A stretch of DNA of 64,000 nt, from assembly GCA_964604515.1 (NCBI GenBank), contig CAZRZA010000002.1:1607-65606 (forward strand). Reading direction: 5' to 3'. Under the pieces are notes generated by a model that was not told the DNA's origin, searched no databases, and saw nothing but the letters and a program-made list of their open reading frames with translations. The stretch is from an uncultured Gammaproteobacteria bacterium (lineage in GTDB: Bacteria; Patescibacteriota; Patescibacteriia; UBA1558; GWA2-36-10). The position numbers and the translations under genes are program-made. This document shows, one piece after another, positions 2,445-25,545 of the stretch. Position 1 is the first letter of the stretch. Each line of letters begins with the position of its first letter.

Positions 2445-4931
2445 ATGCCTAAGAAAAAACAAGAAAATAAAAAAGAAGATATTCTAAAAGATAATAGAGG
2501 TGCGGTAGAACAATTGTCTATTGTTGAAGAAATGCAAAATTCTTACATAGACTATGCTATGTCTGTTATTGTTGCTAGAGCCTTACCAGATGTTAGAGAT
2601 GGCTTAAAGCCGGTACATCGTCGTATTCTTTATGCAATGTGGAGTCTAGGATTAAGGCATGCTGCTAAATTTCGTAAATCAGCAACAGTGGTTGGTGAGG
2701 TACTTGGTAAATACCATCCTCATGGTGATTCGGCTGTTTACGAGTCTATGGTTAGAATGGCGCAAGACTTTTCTATGCGTTATCAATTAGTAAATGGTCA
2801 GGGTAACTTTGGTTCTATTGACGGTGATAATGCAGCTGCTATGAGATACACTGAAGCAAAGTTACGGGGTATAGCTGAAGAATTAATGTTTGATTTAGAA
2901 AAGAATACAGTAGACTTTGTTCCTAATTATGATGGTTCTCAAAAAGAACCAAAAGTAATGCCTGCTAAATTACCTAATTTATTATTAAATGGCACAACAG
3001 GTATTGCGGTTGGTATGGCTACTAATATACCTCCTCATAATTTGGGGGAATTAATAGATGCCATTCTTTTATTAATAGATAATGCAGACTCTACCATTGA
3101 AGGCTTAATGCAATATATTAAGGGTCCTGACTTTCCAACGGGGGGAGTAATTTATAATATAGAAGATATTAAAACAGCTTATGCCACCGGTCGAGGAGGA
3201 ATAGTAATTAGAGGGGAAGCAGAAATATCAGAGTTAAAGTCTAATCAATTTCAAATAATTATTTCTTCTATACCTTTTCAAGTTAATAAAGGTAATCTTT
3301 TAGAAAAAATAGCCTTTTTAGTTAAAGATAAAAAAATAGAAGGTATTAAAGACTTAAGAGATGAATCAGATAAAGATGGTATTCGTATTGTTATTGAATT
3401 AAAGAGAGATGCCTATCCTAAAAAGATTTTAAATAATTTATACAAGAAAACTCAATTACAAGAAAAGTTTCATGTTAATATGCTAGCCCTAATAGATGGC
3501 ATACAACCTAGAGTATTAACCTTAAAAGATGTTTTAGAAGAATATATTAAACATCGTCAAGAAGTCATTGCTCGTCGTACTAAATTTGAATTAGACAAAG
3601 CTAAAGATAGGGCTCATATTTTGGAAGGCCTGAAAAAAGCTCTAGATAAAATAGATGCCATTATAAAAACAATAAAAGCATCTAAAGATAAAGAAGTAGC
3701 CAAAGTTAATTTAATGAAGAAATTTAAATTAACAGAAATACAAGCTATTGCTATTTTAGAAATGAAATTACAAAGTTTAGCTAATTTAGAAAAATTAAAA
3801 TTAGAGAATGAGTTAAAAGAAAAATTAAAGATAATAAAAGAATTGACAGCTATTTTAAAGAGTAAAAATAAAATATTAGATATTATTAAAAAAGAATTAA
3901 AAGAAATTAAAGATAAATACGCTGATCAGAGAAAAACTAAAGTTATTAAATCAGCTATTGATAGAATGAATACTGAAGATTTAATACCTAATGAAGCAGC
4001 TATTATTACCATGACTCATGATGGTTATATAAAGAGATTGTCTCCCGAGAATTTTAAAACTCAAGGGAGAGGTGGCAAGGGAGTGACTGGCTTAACAACT
4101 AAAGAAGAAGATCAGGTAGAGATATTCTTTGCTACTAACACTCATGCTGACTTAATGTTCTTCACGACACAAGGAAGGGTTTTTCAGTTAAAAGCATATG
4201 AAATACCTCAAATGAGTAGATCTGCTAAAGGTCAAAACATAGTTAATTTCCTACAACTTTCTCCAGAAGAAAAAGTATCTTCTGTTTTACAAAGCGAAGA
4301 TTTTGAGATATATAAATATTTTATTATGGTTACTAAAGAGGGAATAATTAAAAAAGTTCCTGTTGAACAATTTAAAAAAGTAAGAAGATCTGGTTTAATA
4401 GCTATTAAATTAAAGAAGGATGATATTTTAGGATGGGTTAAACCAGCTACTGGACAAGATGATATTATTTTAGCTACCGCTAAAGGCCAAGCTATTAGGT
4501 TTAAGGAAAAAGGTGTCAGGGCTATGGGTAGATCAGCTGGCGGCGTTAGAGGTATTAGGCTAAAGAAGGAAGACCAGTTAATAGGAGTAGACTTAATTCC
4601 GGAAGGAAAAATTAACCAAGACGAACAATTATTAGTAGTTACTAATAATGGTTATGGAAAAAGAACAGGTTTAGATGCTTACAAAGTACAAGGAAGAGGT
4701 GGTTCCGGTATTAAAACAGCTCAAGTTACCACTAAAACAGGTAATGTTTCTTCAGCTCGTATAGTTAGTAGTAAAGTAGAAGATGAAGATTTAATTATTA
4801 TTTCTAAAAAAGGACAAGTAATTCGTTTACCAATTAATTCCATAAATATTTTAAGCAGAGCAACACAAGGCATTAGATTAATGAGCTTTAAAAACCCTGA
4901 AGATACTGTTTCTTCAGTAACATTTATTTAA
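2445..4931 (+). CDS. gyrA: DNA gyrase subunit A
   Basis: Canonical GyrA N-terminus ([28 protein letters not shown]), active-site region ([10 protein letters not shown]) and C-terminal beta-pinwheel repeats; likely start at MPKKK. Confidence 0.95.
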
Positions 4932-4941
4932 TAAAAAAAAT

Positions 4942-5955
4942 ATGTCTGAAAGAGTAGTTTCTCCCCCGGAACAAGACAATGATAAGACTTGGGACTTAAC
5001 CTTAAGACCACAAAGTATTAAGGAGTATATGGGTCAAGAACAGGTTAAGGCTAATTTAGATATTGTTTTAAGAGCTGCTAAAGGAAGAAATGAGCCTTTA
5101 GATCATACTATATTTTTTGGACCCCCAGGCTTAGGTAAAACAACCTTAGCTCATATTATAGCTAAAGAAATGGGTGTTGGTATAAAAATTACTTCAGGAC
5201 CAACCATCACCAAAGCTGGAGACTTAGCAGCTATTATTACTAATTTACAAGAGGGAGACATTCTTTTTATTGATGAAATGCATAGATTAAACAAAACTAT
5301 TGAAGAGATATTATACCCGGCTATGGAAGACTTTGCCTTAGATATTATATTAGGAAAGGGTCCTTCAGCTCAAGTATTAAGATTAGACTTGCCTAAATTT
5401 ACTTTAATAGGAGCTACTACTAGATATAATTTAATTTCTTCTCCTCTTAGAGATAGGTTTGGCATTACTTTTCGTTTAGACTTCTATAAAGAAAATGAAT
5501 TAAGAGATATTATAAAAAGATCTTCAGATATTTTAGCTATTAAAACAAATAAAGAAGCCCAAAAAGAAATAGCTATACGTAGTAGAGCTACACCCCGTAT
5601 TGCTAATCGTATTTTGAAAAGAATTAGAGACTATGCTCAAGTTAAAGGAGTAAAAGAAATTAATAAACAGGTAGTACAAGAAGCTTTAGAATTAATGAAT
5701 ATAGACCAATATGGCTTAGATGAGATAGACAGAAAGTTATTAAGAATAATTGCGGATAATTTTAATGGTGGCCCAGTAGGTTTAAATACTTTAGCGGCCA
5801 CTCTCCAAGAAGAAGCAGGTACTATTGAAGAAATATTTGAACCATATTTAATGCAATTAGGATTATTAAATAGAACAGCTAAGGGCAGAATAGCAACAGC
5901 TAAAACATATAAATATTTAGGTTTAGAAATTCCAGAAGATAATAAATTATTATAA
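4942..5955 (+). CDS. ruvB: Holliday junction branch migration ATPase RuvB
   Basis: LRPQSIKEYMGQEQVK, Walker A GPPGLGKTTLA, Walker B DILFIDEMHRL, RuvB C-terminal winged helix. Confidence 0.95.
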   Translation: MSERVVSPPEQDNDKTWDLTLRPQSIKEYMGQEQVKANLDIVLRAAKGRNEPLDHTIFFGPPGLGKTTLAHIIAKEMGVGIKITSGPTITKAGDLAAIITNLQEGDILFIDEMHRLNKTIEEILYPAMEDFALDIILGKGPSAQVLRLDLPKFTLIGATTRYNLISSPLRDRFGITFRLDFYKENELRDIIKRSSDILAIKTNKEAQKEIAIRSRATPRIANRILKRIRDYAQVKGVKEINKQVVQEALELMNIDQYGLDEIDRKLLRIIADNFNGGPVGLNTLAATLQEEAGTIEEIFEPYLMQLGLLNRTAKGRIATAKTYKYLGLEIPEDNKLL

Positions 5956-16623: not shown

Positions 16624-18106
16624 ATGAAAAAATTAATATCTTTTTTTTGTGGTCATAGCATTATGTTCTATATATGCTATACCAAAGGTAAGCAAAGCTT
16701 TTAGTTTTAGAGATTTATTACCTAACTTTTCTGTAAAAACAGAAGCTCAGACTAAGGATGTTGTAGTTTCTAAGGTTGATAAGGTAACCAAAGATTCTGC
16801 GGTCAATGAGTCTAGGAGTTATACAGATTCTAGATTTAATTATTTTGATTCTAGAATTAATACTTTAAATAGTAGTTTTAAGGGACTAGAGAATCAGGTT
16901 AATAATCTAGGAGATATTTCTGATACAGAAAATAATAATACTTTAGATTCTCGTAGTTTAGTAGAAAATCCTATGACTGAGAATTTGGACGGTGGTCAAA
17001 AATGGATAACAAATATTCGTCGTTTACATATAGAAAGTTCAGAGGACTCTAATGTTAATTTTCCAGGTATTCAGGTTTCTATGAATAGTCATAATGATAA
17101 TGCAATAACAGCAGAGACTCATGGTAATAATTCATATGCAGGTTATTTTAACGCTACAGGTAATAATTCATATGCCGGAAACTTTGAGGGCGATGTTAAA
17201 ATAGATGGCGACTTCAATATAAATAGAACATATACAGGATATGAAGGGGATAGCATCTTTAGTGTTTATGATGGTGATATTGTTACTGCTGGTCCAAACG
17301 TTGATATTAATGGAGCAGATTTAACTTTGAATGATGGTAATTTACACTTTAATAATATTGGGTTTCCAGCAATTAGACTAGATGATAATGTGAGCCAATT
17401 TGATATAAGATGGGATGGTAGTTCTTCTTATTATACCTTTAGCAGAGAAGGTTTAGTTATTGCTGATGGTTCATTAGATGTGTATGGTGATATAAGGTCT
17501 AGGCCTGGAAATAAGATTAAGTCTAGTAATTTTTGTGATGGTAGTGGAAATAATTGCTTTAATATTGCGACTAGTACTAGTAATATTGGTACATGGAACT
17601 TGGGCTCTAATTTAAATTTTCATGAAGCTGATTTAGTATTTAGCAGTAATTATGGATCGGGCAGTACGGCCCATATTAAGTTAGAGGATGATGTAGAAAA
17701 TCTTAGAATTGGTTGGTGGGAGTTTAATGATAATAATAATGATTATGCTAGATATAATTTTGGGCAAGATCTTTTCAGGATTTATGAGGGAGATCTTTCA
17801 CTTTATCAAGGTAGTATTGGAATAGGAACAGATAGTCCAAATAGAAATTTACATATTAAAACAAATGAGGGTGATCAATATATGAACGCTGAAATAGATA
17901 TTCAGTCTGGCGATAATAATTACTGGGGAATTTATCAGGATCATAATGATGGTTCTTTAAATTTTTGGCATGAGGACAATAGAGTAATCTTTACTAACGA
18001 AGGCATTGAAACAGATAAAATTGATTTAGGAGAATTATGTTTAGATGATATTTGTGTAGATAGTTGGGGAAAATTAAAGTTAATATTATCAAATATGACC
18101 TATTAA
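16624..18106 (+). CDS. secreted tail-fibre-like repeat protein; N-terminal signal peptide separated by a +1 frameshift in a T8 run
   Basis: ATG 16624 encodes MKKLISFF then T8 (16641-16648); removing one T gives MKKLISFFVVIALCSIYAIPKVSKA (classic signal peptide) in frame with the 485-aa GTG-initiated ORF 16649-18106; body has GNNSYAG repeats and a SIGIGTDSPNRNLHIK motif typical of phage tail-fibre/adhesin proteins. Confidence 0.55.
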
Positions 18107-18126: not shown

Positions 18127-18156
18127 AAAACAGCTCTTTTTAAAGAGCTGTTTTTA
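18127..18156. terminator. bidirectional terminator between convergent genes
   Basis: aaacagctcttt-tt-aaagagctgttt hairpin with flanking A/T runs. Confidence 0.6.
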
Positions 18157-19755
18157 GTTTAATTCTTTAGTCATATAAGTTTCTTCTATTTTATATCCTA
18201 ATTTTTTATAATATTCTCTAACTCCTATACCAGAAATAACGGCTATTTTATTTAATTTATTTTCTTTGGTTATTTCTTCTGCTTTTTGCATTAATTTTTT
18301 ACCTAAACCAACATGTTGAGTTTTACTAATTTCATCATCTTCTTTAGTATGAACTGGAATCATTTTACCATAAACATGTAATTCTCTGACTAAGGAAGAA
18401 TTAATTAATTCAGGGAATATATTCTTTTTACTATTATCATTAAATCTTAATCTTAAGAAAGCATATACTTTATTATCATATTCATAAGAAAGAAAGTATT
18501 CTAAACCCTGAGAAGCTTCGTATTTTATAATTACTAACTCTACTTTATTAATATCTTTTGTTTTACCCTTTACTTCTCGACACCTTAAACAGTGACAGGT
18601 TTGTTTTCTTTCTGCTAATTTTTTTTGTAAGTATTGTCTTAAATTAGTTACTTTATTACCAGCGATAATACTTTCTTCAGGAATATCTCTAATTAATCTA
18701 TTTATTCTAATATAGGGAGGAGTAATTAACTTAACTTTTAATAATAATTCTAATAATTCTTTTTCTGAATATGGTTTATACTTACCATCTTCATACCATT
18801 TATTTAATTGAGCATATTCATTAACTATACAAGGGTATATTTTTATTTGATCAGGTTGTAAGTCAGGAGTATTAAAAGCATATTTAAACATTTTAAGGTC
18901 TTTGTTTGGAGTAGATCCAGGTAAATCAGGCATATAATGATGATCTACCTTAAAACCGACTTCTTTTAATAATTTAGTAGCTTTAATACTATCTTCTATA
19001 GTATGACCCCTTCTAATTAATTTAAGTATTTTATTATCACTATGTTGTATTCCTAATTGTACTCTGGTACAGCCTAAATTACGAAAGTTTTTAATTTCTT
19101 TGGCATCTATATAATCAGGCCTGGTTTCTAAAGTTAATCCTATGACCTTGTACTTAGTTGTTTCATTTATCTTTTGTTCTTCTTTTAAGCTTAAGGCTTT
19201 TCTCTTTTTAGCATTAATAGTATTAGCAGCATAGAAGAGATCTCTAATAAACTTGTCTTGATAATTTTGAGAATAAAAAGACCAGGTACCTCCTAAGATA
19301 ATTAATTCTAATTTATCTACTTGATGACCATTATTTTCTAAAGCCTTAATTCTCATTACCACCTGTCTAACAGGATCAAAGAGGTTTAATTTAGCTCTCA
19401 TCGCTGCTGGTTCATTAGATAAATAGCTTTTAGGCATATCTGGTTCTGTGGGACAATAAACACAAACATGGGGACAGGATTTTTTTGGTTTAGACAAGAC
19501 AGTAATCACAGAAACACCTGATAATGTTCTAACAGATCTTTTTATTAAGTATTTTTCTAAATTAGAATTCTTCTTTAATTTATTATTTTTTACTAATTGA
19601 CGATAAGTAGAAATAAGTGTAGCTTTAGGAAGAGGTGAAATCTTATTTTTATTAAATAATTTACGAGAAGAAATCATAAAATCTCTTTGACTAGTATATT
19701 CTACTTTAGTCAAAGACTTAACTATATCTTCTATTATATTTTGCTTAATATTCAT
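18154..19755 (-). CDS. elp3: Elp3-family radical SAM tRNA wobble-uridine (cm5U) modification enzyme with C-terminal GNAT domain
   Basis: Radical-SAM cluster motif CPHVCVYCP, Elp3 central domain, C-terminal acetyltransferase motif (HVGLGKKLMQKAEEI); 533 aa like bacterial/archaeal Elp3. Confidence 0.85.
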   Translation of the reverse strand: MNIKQNIIEDIVKSLTKVEYTSQRDFMISSRKLFNKNKISPLPKATLISTYRQLVKNNKLKKNSNLEKYLIKRSVRTLSGVSVITVLSKPKKSCPHVCVYCPTEPDMPKSYLSNEPAAMRAKLNLFDPVRQVVMRIKALENNGHQVDKLELIILGGTWSFYSQNYQDKFIRDLFYAANTINAKKRKALSLKEEQKINETTKYKVIGLTLETRPDYIDAKEIKNFRNLGCTRVQLGIQHSDNKILKLIRRGHTIEDSIKATKLLKEVGFKVDHHYMPDLPGSTPNKDLKMFKYAFNTPDLQPDQIKIYPCIVNEYAQLNKWYEDGKYKPYSEKELLELLLKVKLITPPYIRINRLIRDIPEESIIAGNKVTNLRQYLQKKLAERKQTCHCLRCREVKGKTKDINKVELVIIKYEASQGLEYFLSYEYDNKVYAFLRLRFNDNSKKNIFPELINSSLVRELHVYGKMIPVHTKEDDEISKTQHVGLGKKLMQKAEEITKENKLNKIAVISGIGVREYYKKLGYKIEETYMTKELN

Positions 19756-20419
19756 GTCTATTAAAAAAGAATTAAAAAAAATTTATAATACTATTTCCCA
19801 GGAATTCTCTAGTTCTCGTGCTTTTCCTTGGGAAGAGTTACAACTTTTTATACCATATATCAAAGATAATTTCAAGGTCTTAGACTTAGGCTGTGGTAAC
19901 GGTAGATTAATAAAGATATTAGAAGAAAATGATTGTCAGATAGAATATACAGGACTAGACTTTAGTAATAAGTTAATAGAACAGGCTAGAGAATCTTTTC
20001 CTCAATATACCTTTAAGGTAGAGGATATGAATAATATAGACTATGAAGAAAATAGTTTTGATATGGTTTTTATGATAGCTTCTTTTCATCATTTAGAAAC
20101 TAAAGAAGAGAGATTAGAATTATTAAAGAAAGTAAATAAAATATTAAAACCAGGTGGTTATTTATTCATGACTAATTGGAACTTATTTCAAAAGAAATAT
20201 TTTAAGTTTCTTTTCAAGAATATATTTAAAAAAAAATCTTGGAATGACTTTTTTATTCCTTGGCAAACTTATTCTCAGAAAGGAGAAAGGCTATGGAGAT
20301 TTTATCATAGCTTTACTAAGAGAGAGTTAGAGAATTTATTAAAAAAGGCTAACTTTAAATTAAAACCACAAGGGGTTTATAAGACAGAATTTAATATAAA
20401 TAGTTTTGTTAAAAAGTAG
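19754..20419 (+). CDS. Trm9-like class I SAM-dependent tRNA (mcm5U) methyltransferase
   Basis: Motif I VLDLGCGNG; Trm9 signature FDMVFMIASFHHLETKEERLELLKKVNKILKPGGYLFMTNWNLFQ (compare yeast Trm9 FDFAISIAVVHHWSTRERRVEVIRHVLSKLRQGGQALIYCWALEQ), DFFIPW, RFYH; start codon overlaps elp3 start (CATG). Confidence 0.75.
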   Translation: MSIKKELKKIYNTISQEFSSSRAFPWEELQLFIPYIKDNFKVLDLGCGNGRLIKILEENDCQIEYTGLDFSNKLIEQARESFPQYTFKVEDMNNIDYEENSFDMVFMIASFHHLETKEERLELLKKVNKILKPGGYLFMTNWNLFQKKYFKFLFKNIFKKKSWNDFFIPWQTYSQKGERLWRFYHSFTKRELENLLKKANFKLKPQGVYKTEFNINSFVKK

Positions 20420-20453
20420 CATTGGACGCTGCTTTTTATTTTTCCTTTATATA

Positions 20454-20462
20454 TGGTATAAT
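20454..20462 (+). promoter_or_regulatory. extended -10 promoter (TGgTATAAT) for paralog A
   Basis: tggtataat about 45 nt upstream of ATG 20507. Confidence 0.4.
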
Positions 20463-20506
20463 ATAGCTATATTAAAATATTTCTAATGTCATTATTTCAA
20501 AAAATT

Positions 20507-21733
20507 ATGAAAAAGATTAAAACTAAAGTAGGGGCTAAGATTTCTACAGAAACAAAGCTACTTTTGAGTGTAGTTATGCTTTTATCTTCCATAGGTTTTA
20601 TGGGATTTGCTAATGGTCTAGTAAGGGCACCGGCAAAAGTTATTGAAAAAAGAATTGTAAAATTAGAAAGAATTACAGAAGAAAACAATAAGAAAATAGA
20701 GAAATTGGTGGAAAAGAAGAGAATATTGAAAAATGAGTTTTTTTCTGGAGGAGAACTTGGTAATACTATTGATGATACTGAAGAAGGAAGTGTAAAATTT
20801 TACTCTGTAGGAACCTTAAACTGTTGTACAACATATGGTAGGTATGGCATGGAAGGATTAGAGGGCGGTGGATGTGCTACTGATAATATGCCAGCTTATA
20901 CAAGCTCTGCTAATGAATGTTGCTATGTAAAAGATTTTTATGAGGAAGCTCATTATGCAGGAGATGATATATACGGTTGTTATGACGAAGATCGTGGGTG
21001 TCAAGAAGACGAATGTGGAGTATGTGGTGGTGATGGCAGTTCTTGTATGGAAGAAGGGGAGCTGTTTGCATGTGATAATAATTCTCAGTGTGGATCTGAA
21101 TTTTGTAATGATAATGGATATTGTGAAGAATATGAAGTGTTTTGCCCTAACGGTGATGAATGTAATGGAGGTCAAACATGCGATAGTGAGTGTATTACCA
21201 ATGGTTTCGCGTACCCTTGTTGTGTCCCTACCTTTATTATTGATAATTCCGTAGATTGTGAGGGCACATTTAATGGAGATGTTGTCTTAGACGAATGTGG
21301 GGTATGTGGCGGTGATAATAGTTCTTGCGCAGACTGTTCTGGAACCCCAAATGGTAATGCTATGTTAGATAATTGTAATACTTGCGATGCTAATCCTAAT
21401 AATGACTGTTCTCTAGATTGTAGTGGTGTTTGGGGAGGTAATGCTTATGAGGATTATTGTGGAGTATGTGATTCTGATCCAGATAATAATAATCAATGCT
21501 CTAATTATTGTTCAGGTCATTCAGATTGTAACACTGATCAATATTGCTATAATCATATTTGTGAAACATATAGGCCAGATGGCTGTTCCTGGAACTTTCC
21601 TTGTGATGAGGGGGAGAGTGATTGTAACTTTAACTCTGATTGTGCTGGTAATTTAGTGTGTGGTACAAATAATTGTAGTTATGGCGGTATAAATGGTGTG
21701 CCAGACTTTGCAGACTGTTGTATGCAGCCATAG
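20507..21733 (+). CDS. secreted/membrane-anchored Cys-rich protein, paralog A of shared-leader family; ADAMTS-like CGVCGGD repeats
   Basis: N-terminus MKKIKTKVGAKISTETKLLLSVVMLLSSIGFMGFANG shared with ORFs 22713 and 23100; coiled-coil stalk; about 60 Cys with DECGVCGGDGSSC / DECGVCGGDNSSC / DYCGVCDSDPDNNNQC repeats. Confidence 0.65.
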   Translation: MKKIKTKVGAKISTETKLLLSVVMLLSSIGFMGFANGLVRAPAKVIEKRIVKLERITEENNKKIEKLVEKKRILKNEFFSGGELGNTIDDTEEGSVKFYSVGTLNCCTTYGRYGMEGLEGGGCATDNMPAYTSSANECCYVKDFYEEAHYAGDDIYGCYDEDRGCQEDECGVCGGDGSSCMEEGELFACDNNSQCGSEFCNDNGYCEEYEVFCPNGDECNGGQTCDSECITNGFAYPCCVPTFIIDNSVDCEGTFNGDVVLDECGVCGGDNSSCADCSGTPNGNAMLDNCNTCDANPNNDCSLDCSGVWGGNAYEDYCGVCDSDPDNNNQCSNYCSGHSDCNTDQYCYNHICETYRPDGCSWNFPCDEGESDCNFNSDCAGNLVCGTNNCSYGGINGVPDFADCCMQP

Positions 21734-21754
21734 TAAATACTAATATGAATAAAT

Positions 21755-21789
21755 AAAACACTTAATTATTTACATTAGGTGTTTTTTAC
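21755..21789 (+). terminator. Rho-independent terminator after paralog A
   Basis: aacacttaa-(loop)-ttaggtgtt hairpin followed by T6. Confidence 0.45.
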
Positions 21790-21816
21790 TACATATTTTA
21801 TTATTTTATTATTATA

Positions 21817-21825
21817 TGGTATAAT
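21817..21825 (+). promoter_or_regulatory. extended -10 promoter (TGgTATAAT) for the ClpB-fragment gene
   Basis: tggtataat about 30 nt upstream of ATG 21857. Confidence 0.4.
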
Positions 21826-21856
21826 ATTCTTATAAAGTTTAAACAAAAATAAAATT

Positions 21857-22690
21857 ATGGAATTTTTAAAAGAACCTTTTATACTTATATTTTTATTATT
21901 AATATTTTTTGTCTATTTACTATTAAAGAAGTCAGGTAATAGTAATAAAAGCATTAAAGAATTAAATATTTTTAAGAGCAAAAAGTATTCTTCTAATTTA
22001 GCTATTAGTAAATTTACTATTGATATTACTAAAACAGCTATTGTAGAAGGATTAGCTTCTGCTATTGTAGAAGGAAAGGTGCCTCAAACACTATTAAATA
22101 AAAGAGTATTAAAAATAGATATGTCATCTATATTGGCTGGTACAAAATATAGAGGAGAATTCGAAAATAGATTTAAATCTTTAATAGACAGTATCATTGC
22201 TATGGATAAACAGAATATAGTATTTATTGATGAGATTCATACTATAGTACAAGCGGGTGGTGCAGAAGGGGCTATTGATGCAGATGATATAATAAAACCG
22301 CCTTTAGCGAGAGGAGAATTACAAATGGTTGGTACTACTACCACTAAAGAGTATAAAGAATATATAATGCCGGATACTTCTTTAACTAGAAGATTTGAAC
22401 CATTAAAGATAGCGGAACCAAATAAAGTAGAAACATTAAGAATATTAAAAGGATTAAAGAAAAACTATGAAGAATATCATAATGTAATAATTAATGATGA
22501 TTTATTAAAGAAAATTATTGACTTCTCTTTTAAGACTAAAACTAGGGTTTTTCCAGACAAAGCAATAGATATCTTAGATGAAGTATGTGCTAAAGTTAGA
22601 TTAGATAATATTAAGAGTAATAAAACTATAAAGATTACAGCTAAAGACATAAAAGATATATCTAAATATTTCAAAAAACAAGAAATTTAA
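21857..22690 (+). CDS. membrane-anchored fragment of ClpB/ClpA AAA+ D1 domain with degenerate Walker A
   Basis: N-terminal TM FILIFLLLIFFVYLLL; then KTAIVEGLASAIVEGKVP...ILAGTKYRGEFENRFKSL...VFIDEIHTIVQAGG...LARGELQMVGTTT...RRFEPL...FPDKAIDILDEV collinear with ClpB D1, but P-loop GxxGxGKT is replaced (FTIDITKT) and the N-domain, M-domain and D2 are absent. Confidence 0.55.
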   Translation: MEFLKEPFILIFLLLIFFVYLLLKKSGNSNKSIKELNIFKSKKYSSNLAISKFTIDITKTAIVEGLASAIVEGKVPQTLLNKRVLKIDMSSILAGTKYRGEFENRFKSLIDSIIAMDKQNIVFIDEIHTIVQAGGAEGAIDADDIIKPPLARGELQMVGTTTTKEYKEYIMPDTSLTRRFEPLKIAEPNKVETLRILKGLKKNYEEYHNVIINDDLLKKIIDFSFKTKTRVFPDKAIDILDEVCAKVRLDNIKSNKTIKITAKDIKDISKYFKKQEI

Positions 22691-22712
22691 ATAATTAATA
22701 ATTAAAAAAAAT

Positions 22713-23075
22713 ATGAAAAAATTTAAAACAAAGATTGGAGCTAAAATCTCTACAGAAACTAAGCTATTGTTAAGTACTATGATGGTCTTAGCTGGCATGG
22801 GATTTATTGGCCTTGCTAATGGATTTGTAACACATCAAGCTAAGCCATATAAGGAACAAATAATTAAACATGAAAAACAAATAACAGAGAACGAGAACTT
22901 TGCTGAAGCACTTATAGGTTACATGAAAACACCACCTATTATGCGTGGAGCAAGCGGTTGTGGAAACGCATGTAAGGTAGGAAGCGGTTGTGTTTCTGGT
23001 TGTCCTTGTGCTCCTTACTCTGGTCTTCCTGGATGGGGAACATGTACAGGTAAACCACCAAAAGAAATAGAATAA
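22713..23075 (+). CDS. small secreted Cys/Gly-rich protein, paralog C of shared-leader family
   Basis: MKKFKTKIGAKISTETKLLLSTMMVLAGMGFIGLANG leader; C-terminus GASGCGNACKVGSGCVSGCPCAPYSGLPGWGTCTG. Confidence 0.6.
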   Translation: MKKFKTKIGAKISTETKLLLSTMMVLAGMGFIGLANGFVTHQAKPYKEQIIKHEKQITENENFAEALIGYMKTPPIMRGASGCGNACKVGSGCVSGCPCAPYSGLPGWGTCTGKPPKEIE

Positions 23076-23099
23076 TAGTATAAATAATTTAAAAAAAGT

Positions 23100-24356
23100 A
23101 TGGCAAAAACTAAATCAAAAATCGGGACTAAAATCTCTACAGAAACTAAGTTATTATTAAGTGCAGTAATGCTATTATCAGCCTTAGGTTTTATTAGATT
23201 TGCTAATATGGCGGTAAATATGGGTAATAATATATATAAACCTCAAATAGTGAGATCAAATAATATTACTAAACATAATAATGAAATAGCTCAAAAAGAG
23301 CTAAAGAGAAGAGTGGAAATAACAAAATGTAGAACAGATAAAGAATGTATTAAAGAAGGTAAGATCTGTAAAAAAGAAAGAGGACAAAGATTTGGCTCTT
23401 GTTCTTTACCTGAATTAGTAGAATTACCACCTTCCTTTCCAGAAGATGATTTTGACAACGATACTAATCCCTTAGATCAATTAACTCATTATAATATGGA
23501 TTTTGGACAAGCTCAGCCGGGTGATCCTAATATTGATGACAGATTCTGTGCGCCGTTAACCCAAACCGTAGTAGATGCCTACCTAGATGAAATAGGAAAT
23601 AATCCTGCTACGGTAGCAGATATAATAGCAGGAGGATGTTTAGAGTTAGAAGAAGATATAAACATGGGCATCGGAGCACTTTCTTTTGATGATTATAATT
23701 CTGGTTTAGAATTTAATTGTAATGGTTATGAGATTATAGGAACAGGAGCCTTTGGAATGTTCTTAAACGGAACTGTAACCGCTAATGACTGTGTTATTAG
23801 TGACAGGACGTATAATTCAGATATAACAGGCAGCGGCAGGGGACTTATGTTATATGACACCAGCACCGTAAATAACAGCACAGCTGATAATAATTATTAT
23901 GGATTTGAATTACATGACACCAGCACCGTAAATAACAGCACAGCTATTAACAGCGAGTTCTTTGGATTTAGGTTGTTTAATTTTAGTACCGTAGATAACA
24001 GCACAGCTGATAATAATTATCATGGGTTTGGATTAAATGACACCAGCGTCGTAAATAATAGCACAGCTCATAATAATTCTGAAGGATTTATATTGTCTGA
24101 CAATAGCACCGTAAATAACAGCACAGCATATGACAATGACTTAGGATTAAACAGTGGTCCTTGGGGTGAGCCAGTAAATATTATAGGAGGAAGCTTTTGT
24201 AATAACACAAACAATGATATAGAGAGTGGCAATAATGCAGCTATCTTTACAGGAATAATTCAAGTAACAGATCCTGTTATTAGCATTGGAACCTTTGATC
24301 CTCTTAACTCAGACTTTACCCTAGAAACATGTACTTCGACTACACCAGGTATTTAA
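23100..24356 (+). CDS. secreted beta-helix repeat protein, paralog D of shared-leader family
   Basis: MAKTKSKIGTKISTETKLLLSAVMLLSALGFIRFAN leader; Cys-knot-like CRTDKECIKEGKICKK; 20-aa repeats TSTVNNSTADNNYYGFELHD x5 (parallel beta-helix-like). Confidence 0.65.
   Translation: MAKTKSKIGTKISTETKLLLSAVMLLSALGFIRFANMAVNMGNNIYKPQIVRSNNITKHNNEIAQKELKRRVEITKCRTDKECIKEGKICKKERGQRFGSCSLPELVELPPSFPEDDFDNDTNPLDQLTHYNMDFGQAQPGDPNIDDRFCAPLTQTVVDAYLDEIGNNPATVADIIAGGCLELEEDINMGIGALSFDDYNSGLEFNCNGYEIIGTGAFGMFLNGTVTANDCVISDRTYNSDITGSGRGLMLYDTSTVNNSTADNNYYGFELHDTSTVNNSTAINSEFFGFRLFNFSTVDNSTADNNYHGFGLNDTSVVNNSTAHNNSEGFILSDNSTVNNSTAYDNDLGLNSGPWGEPVNIIGGSFCNNTNNDIESGNNAAIFTGIIQVTDPVISIGTFDPLNSDFTLETCTSTTPGI
23856..24155 (+). 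repeat. five tandem ~60-bp coding repeats (gacaccagcaccgtaaataacagcacagct...)
   Basis: Near-identical 60-nt units at about 23856, 23916, 23976, 24036 and 24096 inside ORF 23100-24356. Confidence 0.7.
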
Positions 24357-24420: not shown

Positions 24421-25545
24421 ATGTTCAAAAAGATAGTATTCCTCTTTATTCTCTTATTACCATTAACTGTCTTAGGTGCAGAATATCATAGTAATGGGGA
24501 GATAATAATAACTAAGGATAGCGTTGTAAATACTAATTATTATGGTATAGCTGAGAATATCTCTATTTATGGAGAAGTAAATGGGGATCTCTTTATTATT
24601 GCTGATACCGTTTTAATAGATTCAGATAATATTAATGGAGACCTTTTTATTATTGCTAAAGATATTAATATTAATAGTAAAGTAGACGGTAATATTAGAA
24701 TTATTGGTGATAAATTAAGCATCAGAGGAGAAATAGAAAAGAATACCCTATTTATCGGAGGTGTTTTTAATTTATTAAAAGAAGGCAAATTAAATGGTAG
24801 TCTTACTAACTTCTTAAGTAAATCTTCTTTAGAGGGCGAAGTAAATGGTAAGGTAGATGGCTATTTAGAGTCTTTGATAATTAAAGGAAACATAAACAAT
24901 GATCTGGATATTAATTTCTTAAGAGGTTTTTCTAATAGCTTTGTAATAGGCTCAGAAGCTATTTTAAGTGGTAATATGAAGTATCAGGCCCTAGAAGAGG
25001 TTCAAATAGAAGAAGGAGCTATAATAGGTAATATAGAGTACAGAGAGGATAGTTTTCCTATAAAACCTTTGTTTAGTATAGACAATTTATGGAATTTAGT
25101 AATACAGTTTTTTTCTTTAATGGTTTTGGGTATGATTCTTTTATATCTATTCCCCAACTTATTTAAAGGTATTAATAGAGAATTATTTGAAAAATCTTTC
25201 TTTAATATGATTAAAGGTTTATTATTCTTTATATTAATACCAGTATTTTCTATTCTTTTAATGTTTACTATTATTGGTATTCCTTTAGCTATTATTATTT
25301 TATTATTATATGGAATATTTATTTATTTAAGTAAATTATTTATAGCCTTTAGCTATTATTATTTTATTAAGATAAAATTCTTGAAAGAAAAAAATATTAA
25401 AGATAATAATAAATTAGCCTTAGGAATATTTATATATTTAATAGTATCTTATATTCCTATTATTGGACCATTAATTACTATTTATTTATTTACATTAACT
25501 TGGTCTATGTTCTATAATAAAGTATTAAATAAATTAAAAAAATAA
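24421..25545 (+). CDS. signal-peptide protein with bactofilin/polymer-forming beta-helix-like extracellular domain and C-terminal multi-TM region
   Basis: Signal peptide MFKKIVFLFILLLPLTVLGA; repeated GxIxxxGDLFIIA / NGxL motifs (DUF4097/bactofilin-like); four C-terminal TM helices. Confidence 0.5.
   Translation: MFKKIVFLFILLLPLTVLGAEYHSNGEIIITKDSVVNTNYYGIAENISIYGEVNGDLFIIADTVLIDSDNINGDLFIIAKDININSKVDGNIRIIGDKLSIRGEIEKNTLFIGGVFNLLKEGKLNGSLTNFLSKSSLEGEVNGKVDGYLESLIIKGNINNDLDINFLRGFSNSFVIGSEAILSGNMKYQALEEVQIEEGAIIGNIEYREDSFPIKPLFSIDNLWNLVIQFFSLMVLGMILLYLFPNLFKGINRELFEKSFFNMIKGLLFFILIPVFSILLMFTIIGIPLAIIILLLYGIFIYLSKLFIAFSYYYFIKIKFLKEKNIKDNNKLALGIFIYLIVSYIPIIGPLITIYLFTLTWSMFYNKVLNKLKK

Follow-up and report, generated by a model that had tools for sequence, protein, structure and literature searches.

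A candidate N-terminal surface-protein tag linked to a short membrane-anchored Clp-type ATPase in Patescibacteria

Introduction

Sorting-signal systems such as LPXTG/sortase, PEP-CTERM/exosortase, GlyGly-CTERM/rhombosortase, YSIRK and KxYKxGKxW/accessory-Sec (SecA2) combine a terminal motif, a hydrophobic helix and a cluster of basic residues into a unit that is common to paralogues with unrelated passengers, and at least one gene for such a protein adjoins the gene of the presumed handling protein. The KxYKxGKxW/SecA2 system has its signal at the N-terminus and an ATPase as partner. Here we describe a candidate system of similar layout in a window of 64,000 nucleotides (the whole stretch of DNA analysed, from contig CAZRZA010000002.1 of assembly GCA_964604515.1), where three genes, designated A, B and C, encode proteins with a common N-terminal tag and a fourth gene, lying between A and B, encodes a short membrane-anchored AAA+ ATPase. 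The tag matches none of the models of the known sorting signals, its partner would be a Clp-type AAA+ unfoldase module rather than a transpeptidase, a protease or SecA, and compared with the C-terminal signals the order of its parts is mirrored (basic tail, motif, helix). Each part resembles known kinds; what is new is the pairing of a sorting- or anchoring-type signal with a membrane-anchored AAA+ protein.

The short ATPase invites comparison with two groups of enzymes. Like FtsH and Msp1/ATAD1 (for Msp1, PMC12793716), it has an N-terminal transmembrane (TM) anchor, a single ring of the hexamer-forming kind that would sit at the cytoplasmic face, and a pore-loop tyrosine, and the potential substrates are alike, being membrane proteins that span the bilayer once and have a short tail in the cytoplasm. 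The likeness is one of architecture only: the protein belongs to the ClpC/ClpB D1 lineage and not to the classical FtsH/Msp1 clade, it lacks a protease domain, whereas FtsH has M41, and it has dedicated tagged neighbours rather than a general clientele. With ClpC, ClpB, ClpA and ClpV it shares the large and small subdomains of D1, the Walker A and B motifs, the KYRGEFE pore loop and the arginine finger, but at about 300–320 residues, against 730–870, it carries a TM helix and linker in place of the N-domain and is without the M-domain, the D2 ring and the ClpP-binding loop.

A further comparison is with class III signals, in which the leader ends in a glycine at position −1, described as ‘absolutely critical’, followed by some 21 hydrophobic residues broken only by Glu5, and is cleaved by the prepilin peptidase (PMC4471445). 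The archaeal DUF361/UPF0333 variant reads QXSXEXXXL, with the glutamine at +1 (PMC2910488). The tag has a hydrophilic leader followed by a long N-terminal helix, its I-S-x-E resembles part of QXSXEXXXL, and pilus genes sometimes lie near. It differs from these signals in having neither a conserved Gly-1 nor a conserved Glu, in carrying lysine within the would-be mature N-terminus, and in matching none of their models.

Results

Three proteins with a common N-terminal module and unrelated ectodomains

Genes A (20507–21733, 408 amino acids), B (22713–23075, 120 amino acids) and C (23100–24356, 418 amino acids), all on the plus strand, begin with a module of about 70 residues made up of a Lys/Thr-rich tail, the motif ISTETKLLL, a single hydrophobic helix and a short helical stalk. 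Over residues 1–71 the alignment is free of gaps, and 25 of its 71 columns are invariant, including K11–S21 (KISTETKLLLS). A six-frame fuzzy search found GAKISTETKLLLS at exactly three places in the window, which are the starts of A, B and C. Seen as DNA, the module is a three-copy direct repeat of 151 nucleotides with 70–72% identity (20474–20624, 22680–22830 and 23067–23217). The likeness ends at about residue 70 in an all-versus-all BLASTP comparison.

The tail comprises 17 Lys/Thr-rich residues with a net charge of +4 to +5 and ends in [IV]-S-x-[E/K]-T-K-x-L-L. It is followed by a helix of about 19 hydrophobic residues (hydrophobic run 15–26 residues) with conserved small residues in a G..FA pattern. 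In gene A the tail corresponds to codons 1–17 (20507–20557) and the helix to codons 18–36 (20558–20614); a charged helical stalk extends to about 20760 and the ectodomain follows. The ATG at 20507 is the most plausible start of gene A, since the paralogues and the database form of the protein (P0003, 408 amino acids) begin MKKIKTK, with an in-frame ATG at 20486 also possible. An AlphaFold2 (AF2) model of C draws residues 14–71 as one helix, with moderate confidence only over the first 30–40 residues.

Beyond the module the proteins diverge. The ectodomain of A contains 44 cysteines and three motifs of the CGVCGGD/CGVCDSD type. Residues 250–283 resemble residues 17–50 of ADAMTS5 (E = 7.8e-4), a 34-residue stretch that was the sole match for A in a search of PDB sequences, and A belongs to no family in Pfam, NCBIfam or PADLOC. 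A strain variant from another assembly (P0130) is identical to A except for one added 28-residue Cys-rich repeat, GVWGGNATLDNCNTCDAYPGNDCSQDCN, at window position 21400–21420, so that the sole strain difference seen in A is one of copy number in an ectodomain repeat. Protein B ends in a short Gly/Cys-rich tail with six cysteines. In C the stalk leads into a small Cys-containing region and then an Asn-rich domain of 60-nucleotide (20-residue) tandem repeats, for which a search of PDB sequences gave no match; AF2, run on the single sequence, drew the repeats as beta hairpins at low confidence (pLDDT 44, unfit for a fold search), and a beta-solenoid or beta-helix would be a guess from the repeats. 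A preliminary description of this DNA, made from the letters alone, had reported three open reading frames (ORFs) with a common leader, TM helix and stalk joined to an ADAMTS-like Cys-rich domain, a Gly/Cys-rich tail and a repeat domain, and had suggested an origin in the candidate phyla radiation (CPR, or Patescibacteria). The first account holds, for the C-terminal domains in outline, and the second agrees with the related contigs, which come from metagenome-assembled genomes (MAGs) of Patescibacteria/Parcubacteria.

The three copies of the module are not recent. Over codons 1–36 the distances between copies are 0.66–1.27 at synonymous sites (dS) and 0.16–0.21 at nonsynonymous sites (dN; Nei–Gojobori), and the differences are mostly synonymous (pS 0.44–0.61 against pN 0.14–0.18), so that conservation operates at the amino-acid level, well beyond chance. 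On this comparison A, B and C are old paralogues over their first 70 or so residues only, with purifying selection acting on the protein. A recent duplication of whole genes was considered and is ruled out by the high dS and the lack of similarity past residue 70.

A D1-only Clp-type ATPase lies between genes A and B

The gene at 21857–22690 (plus strand, 277 amino acids), which the earlier description did not mention, encodes an AAA+ ATPase of the single-ring ClpC/ClpB-D1 type with an N-terminal TM helix, a Lys-rich linker, a KYRGEFE pore loop, a Walker B motif (DEIH), an RRF arginine finger and AAA_lid_9. It matches Pfam AAA and AAA_lid_9 (ClpB/ClpA/ClpV-like core) and positions 205–400 of the NCBIfam ClpB model (E = 2e-71). 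An intact orthologue, P0006 (319 amino acids), covers ClpB positions 151–404 only (E = 6e-99), scoring 332 bits against an equivalog cut-off of 1232. Membership of a defence system was also considered and rejected, as PADLOC gave weak generic AAA matches alone.

Comparison with metagenome contigs of 99.9% identity (L002 and L004) revealed that the window's copy has suffered an in-frame deletion of 126 nucleotides, with its junction at about 22029–22034 between short TAAAA repeats, which removes 42 residues including Walker A. The alignment of contigs L002, L003 and L004 to the window begins only at position 22030. This pattern suggests that intact and deleted alleles coexist in natural populations and break assemblies at that point.

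The 120 best database relatives of P0006 are all 203–345 residues long, mostly about 285–345, the shorter ones being fragments. An N-terminal TM helix is present in 112 of them, and Walker A and KYRG[ED]FE in all but one. Where named, they derive from Patescibacteria, Parcubacteria or Komeilibacteria MAGs, and their usual label is ‘Clp protease ATP-binding subunit’. In an alignment of 12 sequences G..GKT, KYRGEFE, DE.H and RR are invariant, the window's own copy being without Walker A. AF2, given this alignment, predicted a helix at residues 2–23, a disordered linker at 25–45 and an AAA core (pLDDT 81.7), and the top Foldseek matches of the core in the PDB were ClpC D1 and ClpB nucleotide-binding domain 1 (NBD1), with TMq 0.70–0.78, E values down to 5e-28 and 45–52% identity. 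The protein has the D1 fold, Walker A and B, pore-loop tyrosine and arginine finger that define a Clp/Hsp100 D1 (NBD1) module (the window copy excepted for Walker A); with one ring, no N-domain and a score below the cut-off, it is not a full Clp/Hsp100 class I protein (ClpB/ClpA/ClpC/ClpV). As modelled, it is a D1-only Clp module in which a membrane anchor replaces the N-domain.

Tagged genes accompany the short ATPase across Patescibacteria

A profile of A, B and C run exhaustively with HMMER against 1.84 billion representative proteins returned five proteins only: A, B, C and two others, P0004 and P0005. A word-indexed homologue search with the same profile returned B alone, and the exhaustive search was needed for P0004 and P0005. 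P0004 is encoded 19 nucleotides downstream of a short TM-AAA+ gene in locus L006, which is syntenic with the window. P0005 lies 1.9 kb from such a gene in L011, which has a different context (PheT..GyrB), and is a full-length homologue of C (26% identity over 400 residues, E = 7e-15). On the opposite side of the L011 ATPase gene, directly upstream of it, is a second tagged protein (3111–4229) whose C-terminus is a pretoxin Hint (PT-HINT) domain, an element of polymorphic toxins.

Further loci with a short TM-AAA+ gene have flanking genes that carry the tag or resemble it. In L012 there are three, reading ..KITNQTKTLL.., ..ISIRTKTLL.. and ..PIKTKILL... A 57-residue protein consisting of the tag only and a 1047-residue Peptidase_C1/FG-GAP protein flank the ATPase gene of L021; a 62-residue tag-only protein does so in L023, a 66-residue ORF in L025, and a 62-residue gene occupies the small-partner slot beside the ATPase in the locus of P0039. 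Larger neighbours are found in L024 (553 and 757 residues), L105 (563 residues, He_PIG), L107 (two Peptidase_C1 proteins), L108 (799 and 1596 residues) and L014 (336 residues), and in L028 the flanking gene is cut by the contig end. The family consensus, of which the module of A, B and C is the local form, is KTK..(Q)x[IV][SA]x[K/E][TV]KxLL, after which come some 20 hydrophobic residues that include G..FA, and the lysine before the helix (K17) is invariant in an alignment of 14 tags. The passenger domains (Peptidase_C1, FG-GAP, PT-HINT, CarboxypepD_reg, He_PIG and CARDB) are typical of secreted or surface proteins. Loci with tag and ATPase occur in at least four genomic contexts: methyltransferase–AAA+–GlmM, PheT..GyrB, sigma-factor/CorA, and a PilB-PilC-pilin operon. 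The window, L006, L025 and the P0039 locus represent one syntenic context.

The linkage was assessed with a hidden Markov model (HMM) of the tag built with one locus left out at a time, with which 5,261 ORFs of 99 sources were scored. Held-out genes adjacent to the ATPase gene scored 16–42 bits in seven loci (the window, L006, L011, L012, L021, L023 and L025), against a background maximum of 5–8.6 bits among the roughly 4,000 ORFs of the control loci. All 12 validated tag genes lie within 1.9 kb of the ATPase gene and nine of them within 410 nucleotides. Ordinary signal peptides and lipoprotein signals of the same loci gave no match to the tag HMM. The negative controls were full-length ClpB/ClpC loci, reused from a metagenome scan with the AAA+ alignment that had relied on generic Clp patterns (AGTKYRGE, FPDKAID); among the matches listed these loci predominated, and only L025, L026 and L028 were of the short type.

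A broad profile of the 14 tags, run against 5.8 billion proteins, returned four small partners only (P0126–P0129), and the tag is too short and too diverged for database-wide detection. These four and the 66-residue ORF of L025 lie 7–34 nucleotides downstream of the ATPase gene. Adjacency was seen directly for P0126, P0127 and P0128, in L021, L023 and L025, and for each of the four the longest contig equals in length that of a short TM-AAA+ protein (953,322, 1,035,872, 3,371 and 162,571 nucleotides). The preliminary description had called for a search for further ORFs with the module, and had named as grounds for abandoning its idea a module confined to A, B and C and lacking a dedicated enzyme. 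Such ORFs exist, namely P0004, P0005 and further genes flanking the ATPase, and a dedicated-looking AAA+ gene is part of the cluster itself.

Two groups of sequences stand apart from the validated tags. Proteins encoded upstream of the ATPase in L014 (3958–4968), L024 (5722–7995) and L105 (6307–7998) form a second subfamily that starts MK/QxVKTQ/K.., with N-termini that are tag-like by eye and missed by the tag HMM, and with common repeat ectodomains (E = 9e-32, L014 against L024). In L106 a 40-residue ORF on the minus strand (3737–3859), MQSVQIDVATKVSLAEK.., has a tag-like VATK string with a score of 5.8 bits, which is not significant; it is just upstream of a gene for a 1228-residue FG-GAP protein, beside a gene for a VirD4/TraG-like coupling protein and 4 kb from the ATPase gene.

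Organisation of the cluster in the window

The gaps between the ATPase gene and B (22 nucleotides) and between B and C (24 nucleotides) are short, which suggests that AAA+, B and C form one transcription unit. The syntenic relatives L006, L025 and the P0039 locus have no gene A. Since the order is methyltransferase–AAA+–small protein–GlmM in the P0039 locus and methyltransferase–AAA+–P0004 in L006, gene A is an insertion upstream of the ATPase gene in the window's lineage, and B occupies the slot of the tag-only partner of 57–66 residues, directly downstream of the ATPase gene. A terminator-like hairpin at 20410–20438 closes the methyltransferase gene upstream of A. The 15-mer TATATGGTATAATAT, an extended −10 box by its sequence, occurs only twice in the window, both times on the plus strand: at 20450–20464, 43 nucleotides upstream of gene A, and at 21813–21827, 30 nucleotides upstream of the ATPase gene. 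It resembles a promoter and would presumably act as one, in which case the pair hints at co-regulation or at a promoter duplicated along with the tag.

Directly downstream of C is a gene for a DUF8173 protein of 374 residues (24421–25545), which combines a signal peptide and beta-helix repeats of the bactofilin type with a C-terminal region that crosses the membrane several times. The gene is kept after the tagged genes in L006, and in other lineages the cluster does not include it. Upstream, an ORF of 485 residues (16649–18106; Asn/Gly-rich, uncertain GTG start, no family match) lies between the serine hydroxymethyltransferase and Elp3-like genes and has no counterpart in L006; it looks like another lineage-specific insertion, probably for a surface protein. 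The Elp3-like gene itself (18154–19755, minus strand) encodes a radical SAM and GNAT protein whose architecture is more familiar from archaea and eukaryotes, and it adjoins the methyltransferase gene in L006, L025 and the P0039 locus as well.

Discussion

The data bear directly on the module and its selection, the diversity of the ectodomains, the fold and anchor of the ATPase, and the linkage of the genes. A physical contact between ATPase and tag, the direction in which the one acts on the other, and a biological purpose such as the regulation of host-attachment proteins are what we infer. Judging from gene linkage, the chances seem about even that the tag is an N-in signal-anchor functionally coupled to the membrane AAA+ protein.

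The positively charged tail (net +4 to +5) should stay in the cytoplasm, and the tag, cleaved or not, would bring the three kinds of ectodomain (Cys-rich, Gly/Cys-rich and repeat) to the outside of the cell. In Clp ATPases, substrates enter D1 at the N-domain face. Were the coupling real, the hexamer of the short ATPase would be held under the membrane with this substrate-entry face towards the bilayer, and its pore-loop tyrosines could grip the conserved cytoplasmic tail as a handle and then pull. A ring that pulls on the tail is the simplest reading because the Clp entry face is here the one tethered to the membrane. The ATPase might thereby extract tagged surface proteins or turn them over, in the manner of FtsH and Msp1, or it might help to assemble or release them or transmit force to them, and the tag-only small proteins, here B, could be a core partner or adaptor of the ATPase.

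Several points weigh against such a coupling. The argument for it is one of gene linkage throughout. A D1-only ring without a partner protease gives an extracted protein no obvious fate. The motor is probably dead in the window's genome variant while A, B and C are intact, and the persistence of tagged genes beside an allele without Walker A counts against an essential coupling, though intact alleles coexist in near-identical populations. The linkage itself is uneven: genes flanking the ATPase in L024, L028, L107 and L108 score 4.7–7.8 bits, at or near background, so that their tag is recognisable mainly by eye; those of L014 and L105 are tag-like by eye only, with no HMM score above background; and the leave-one-out HMM found no convincing tag beside the ATPase gene in L013, L026 or L106. 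The control loci were mostly from other phyla, and the linkage test covered about 6–10 kb on either side of each ATPase gene.

A plainer explanation is that the tag is an ordinary Sec signal-anchor or signal-peptide family, the common 5′ end of a locally expanding set of surface proteins, and that the ATPase is a general membrane quality-control or other housekeeping enzyme with no specific relation to it. The parts of a class I signal are present, namely a positive n-region (+4 to +5), a hydrophobic core and small residues at −3 and −1 in most members (G-F-A, G-L-A, A-F-A and S-F-A fit the −3/−1 rule; C has R-F-A, with arginine at −3). Adjacency is in part plain synteny, as in the window, L006, L025 and the P0039 locus, and loss of Walker A from the window's ATPase has left the tagged genes intact. 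However, the two kinds of gene are adjacent in at least four unrelated contexts, with ATPase orthologues down to 48–50% identity; across lineages the pre-helix signature [IV][SA]x[KE][TV]KxLL is conserved to a far greater degree than is usual for ordinary signal peptides; it is missing from other secreted proteins of these loci; and the tag-only proteins of 57–66 residues directly downstream of the ATPase gene carry no passenger. We regard this explanation as rather unlikely. In topology the tag is most likely an N-in signal-anchor, or possibly a long signal peptide of the Sec type with its cleavage site behind the G-F-A motif, and the stalk, the tag-only small proteins and the continuous helix that AF2 draws through the putative −3/−1 site of C and on into the stalk favour an uncleaved anchor. 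No match to the YSIRK or KxYKxGKxW models (PF04650; TIGR01168, TIGR03715) was found in Pfam or NCBIfam at E ≤ 0.1, and the tagged proteins matched no other NCBIfam model and none in PADLOC. Of the three functions that the preliminary description had entertained, a novel secretion or anchoring signal, a pilin-like assembly module and a recombination cassette, the first is the one that the evidence favours.

The second would make the tag a divergent class III signal, prepilin-like or DUF361/UPF0333-like, cut by a peptidase of the PilD/EppA type, with the tagged proteins as modular pilins or pilus-associated subunits and the ATPase as an accessory of the filament machine. In its favour, pilin genes occur in three of 12 short-AAA+ loci compared with two of 83 control loci. 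The short TM-AAA+ gene is next to last in a string of PilB, PilC and pilin-like genes in L023 (1098–9137), canonical pilin genes lie beside it in L013 (1538–2068) and L024 (5120–5557), and in L026 ORFs that read by eye as PilN/PilO-like do (3773–5704). One small partner, P0126, carries the Joint Genome Institute (JGI) name ‘UPF0333 family’, which is the sole tie to that family. The string Q-x-I-S-x-E-x-K-x-L does resemble the archaeal QXSXEXXXL (PMC2910488), but out of register: where the glutamine is present the tag has Q-x-[IV]-[SA]-x-[EK]-x-K-x-L, which is longer by one residue and in most cases has lysine for glutamate.

The composition of the tag argues against this reading. The glycine is found in four of the 14 aligned tags (A, B, C and P0005 only), the others having K, V, T, I, N or R in its place. 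The segment after G9 is A-K-I-S-T-E-T-K, with two lysines and with the glutamate at +6; across the 14 tags that glutamate column holds E in five, K or R in eight and Q in one. The invariant lysine and further charges would thus fall inside what should be a hydrophobic mature N-terminus. With E values up to 10 allowed, neither Pfam N_methyl (PF07963) nor Class_IIIsignal (PF04021) matched A, B or C, their N-termini or the small partners, nor did any Pfam or NCBIfam pilin model, whereas a real pilin in L024 carries N_methyl. Canonical G-F-[TS]-L-x-E pilins are encoded in L013, L023 and L024, and these organisms therefore use the canonical prepilin signal for their pilins. As to the prepilin peptidase gene that the preliminary description had proposed to look for, the window contains neither PilD nor a traffic ATPase, a platform protein or other type IV pilus gene, while a relative does encode PilB and PilC (L023). 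The prepilin reading is improbable on these grounds. Even though the tag is no prepilin signal, the system as a whole may cooperate with type IV pili.

That the common 5′ ends form a recombination cassette, in which exchange between modules of 150 nucleotides would shuffle ectodomains and generate antigenic or adhesin variation, is very hard to sustain, even with three direct repeats of about 151 nucleotides on one strand inside 2.7 kb, a set of tagged genes that varies among relatives and a repeat copy number in gene A that differs between strains, for the copies are only 70–78% identical with longest exact matches of 11, 11 and 23 nucleotides and are, with their dS, too diverged for efficient homologous recombination or recent gene conversion, five near-identical metagenome contigs of other, independent samples keep B and C in the same arrangement at 99.9–100% identity with no swapping, and the sole variation in A is an internal repeat indel.

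Returning to the coupling of tag and ATPase, a broader proposal is that the tagged surface proteins belong, with the short Clp-D1 ATPase in the membrane and the small protein that consists of the tag only, to a Patescibacteria-specific protein-handling system that has not been recognised before. We offer this as a tentative possibility. From the cytoplasmic side, the motor of such a system would grip the conserved N-terminal tail, and surface-located adhesins, proteases and toxin-like proteins would then be inserted, assembled, retracted or stripped off; the system may act with type IV pili in episymbiotic attachment to, or detachment from, hosts. Searches of the literature turned up no account of the tag, nor of any CPR Clp ATPase that combines a TM anchor with D1 alone, and Pfam, NCBIfam and PADLOC hold no family for the tag or for a D1-only membrane-anchored Clp ATPase as such. 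The CPR ‘Pam pilus’ (preprint 10.64898/2026.03.03.709456) was considered as the same system and set aside as unrelated, since its pili assemble by donor-strand exchange and involve ordinary signal peptides and no ATPase.

Patescibacteria make up a large share of bacterial diversity and live attached to other cells, and their surface biology is mostly unannotated. With an N-terminal tag that can be recognised, annotation could pick out a class of surface or secreted proteins now assigned to no family, among them proteases and lectin-like, repeat, Cys-rich and HINT-containing proteins. The linkage also provides a testable role for a widespread ‘ClpC-like’ gene that is mislabelled in databases as a Clp protease subunit. 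If the tag does have a cognate membrane-bound motor of the Clp type, ATP hydrolysis in the cytoplasm of a single-membrane cell would be coupled in a new way to what becomes of its surface proteins, and if the link to type IV pilus operons holds, it would have a direct bearing on host attachment by these episymbionts.

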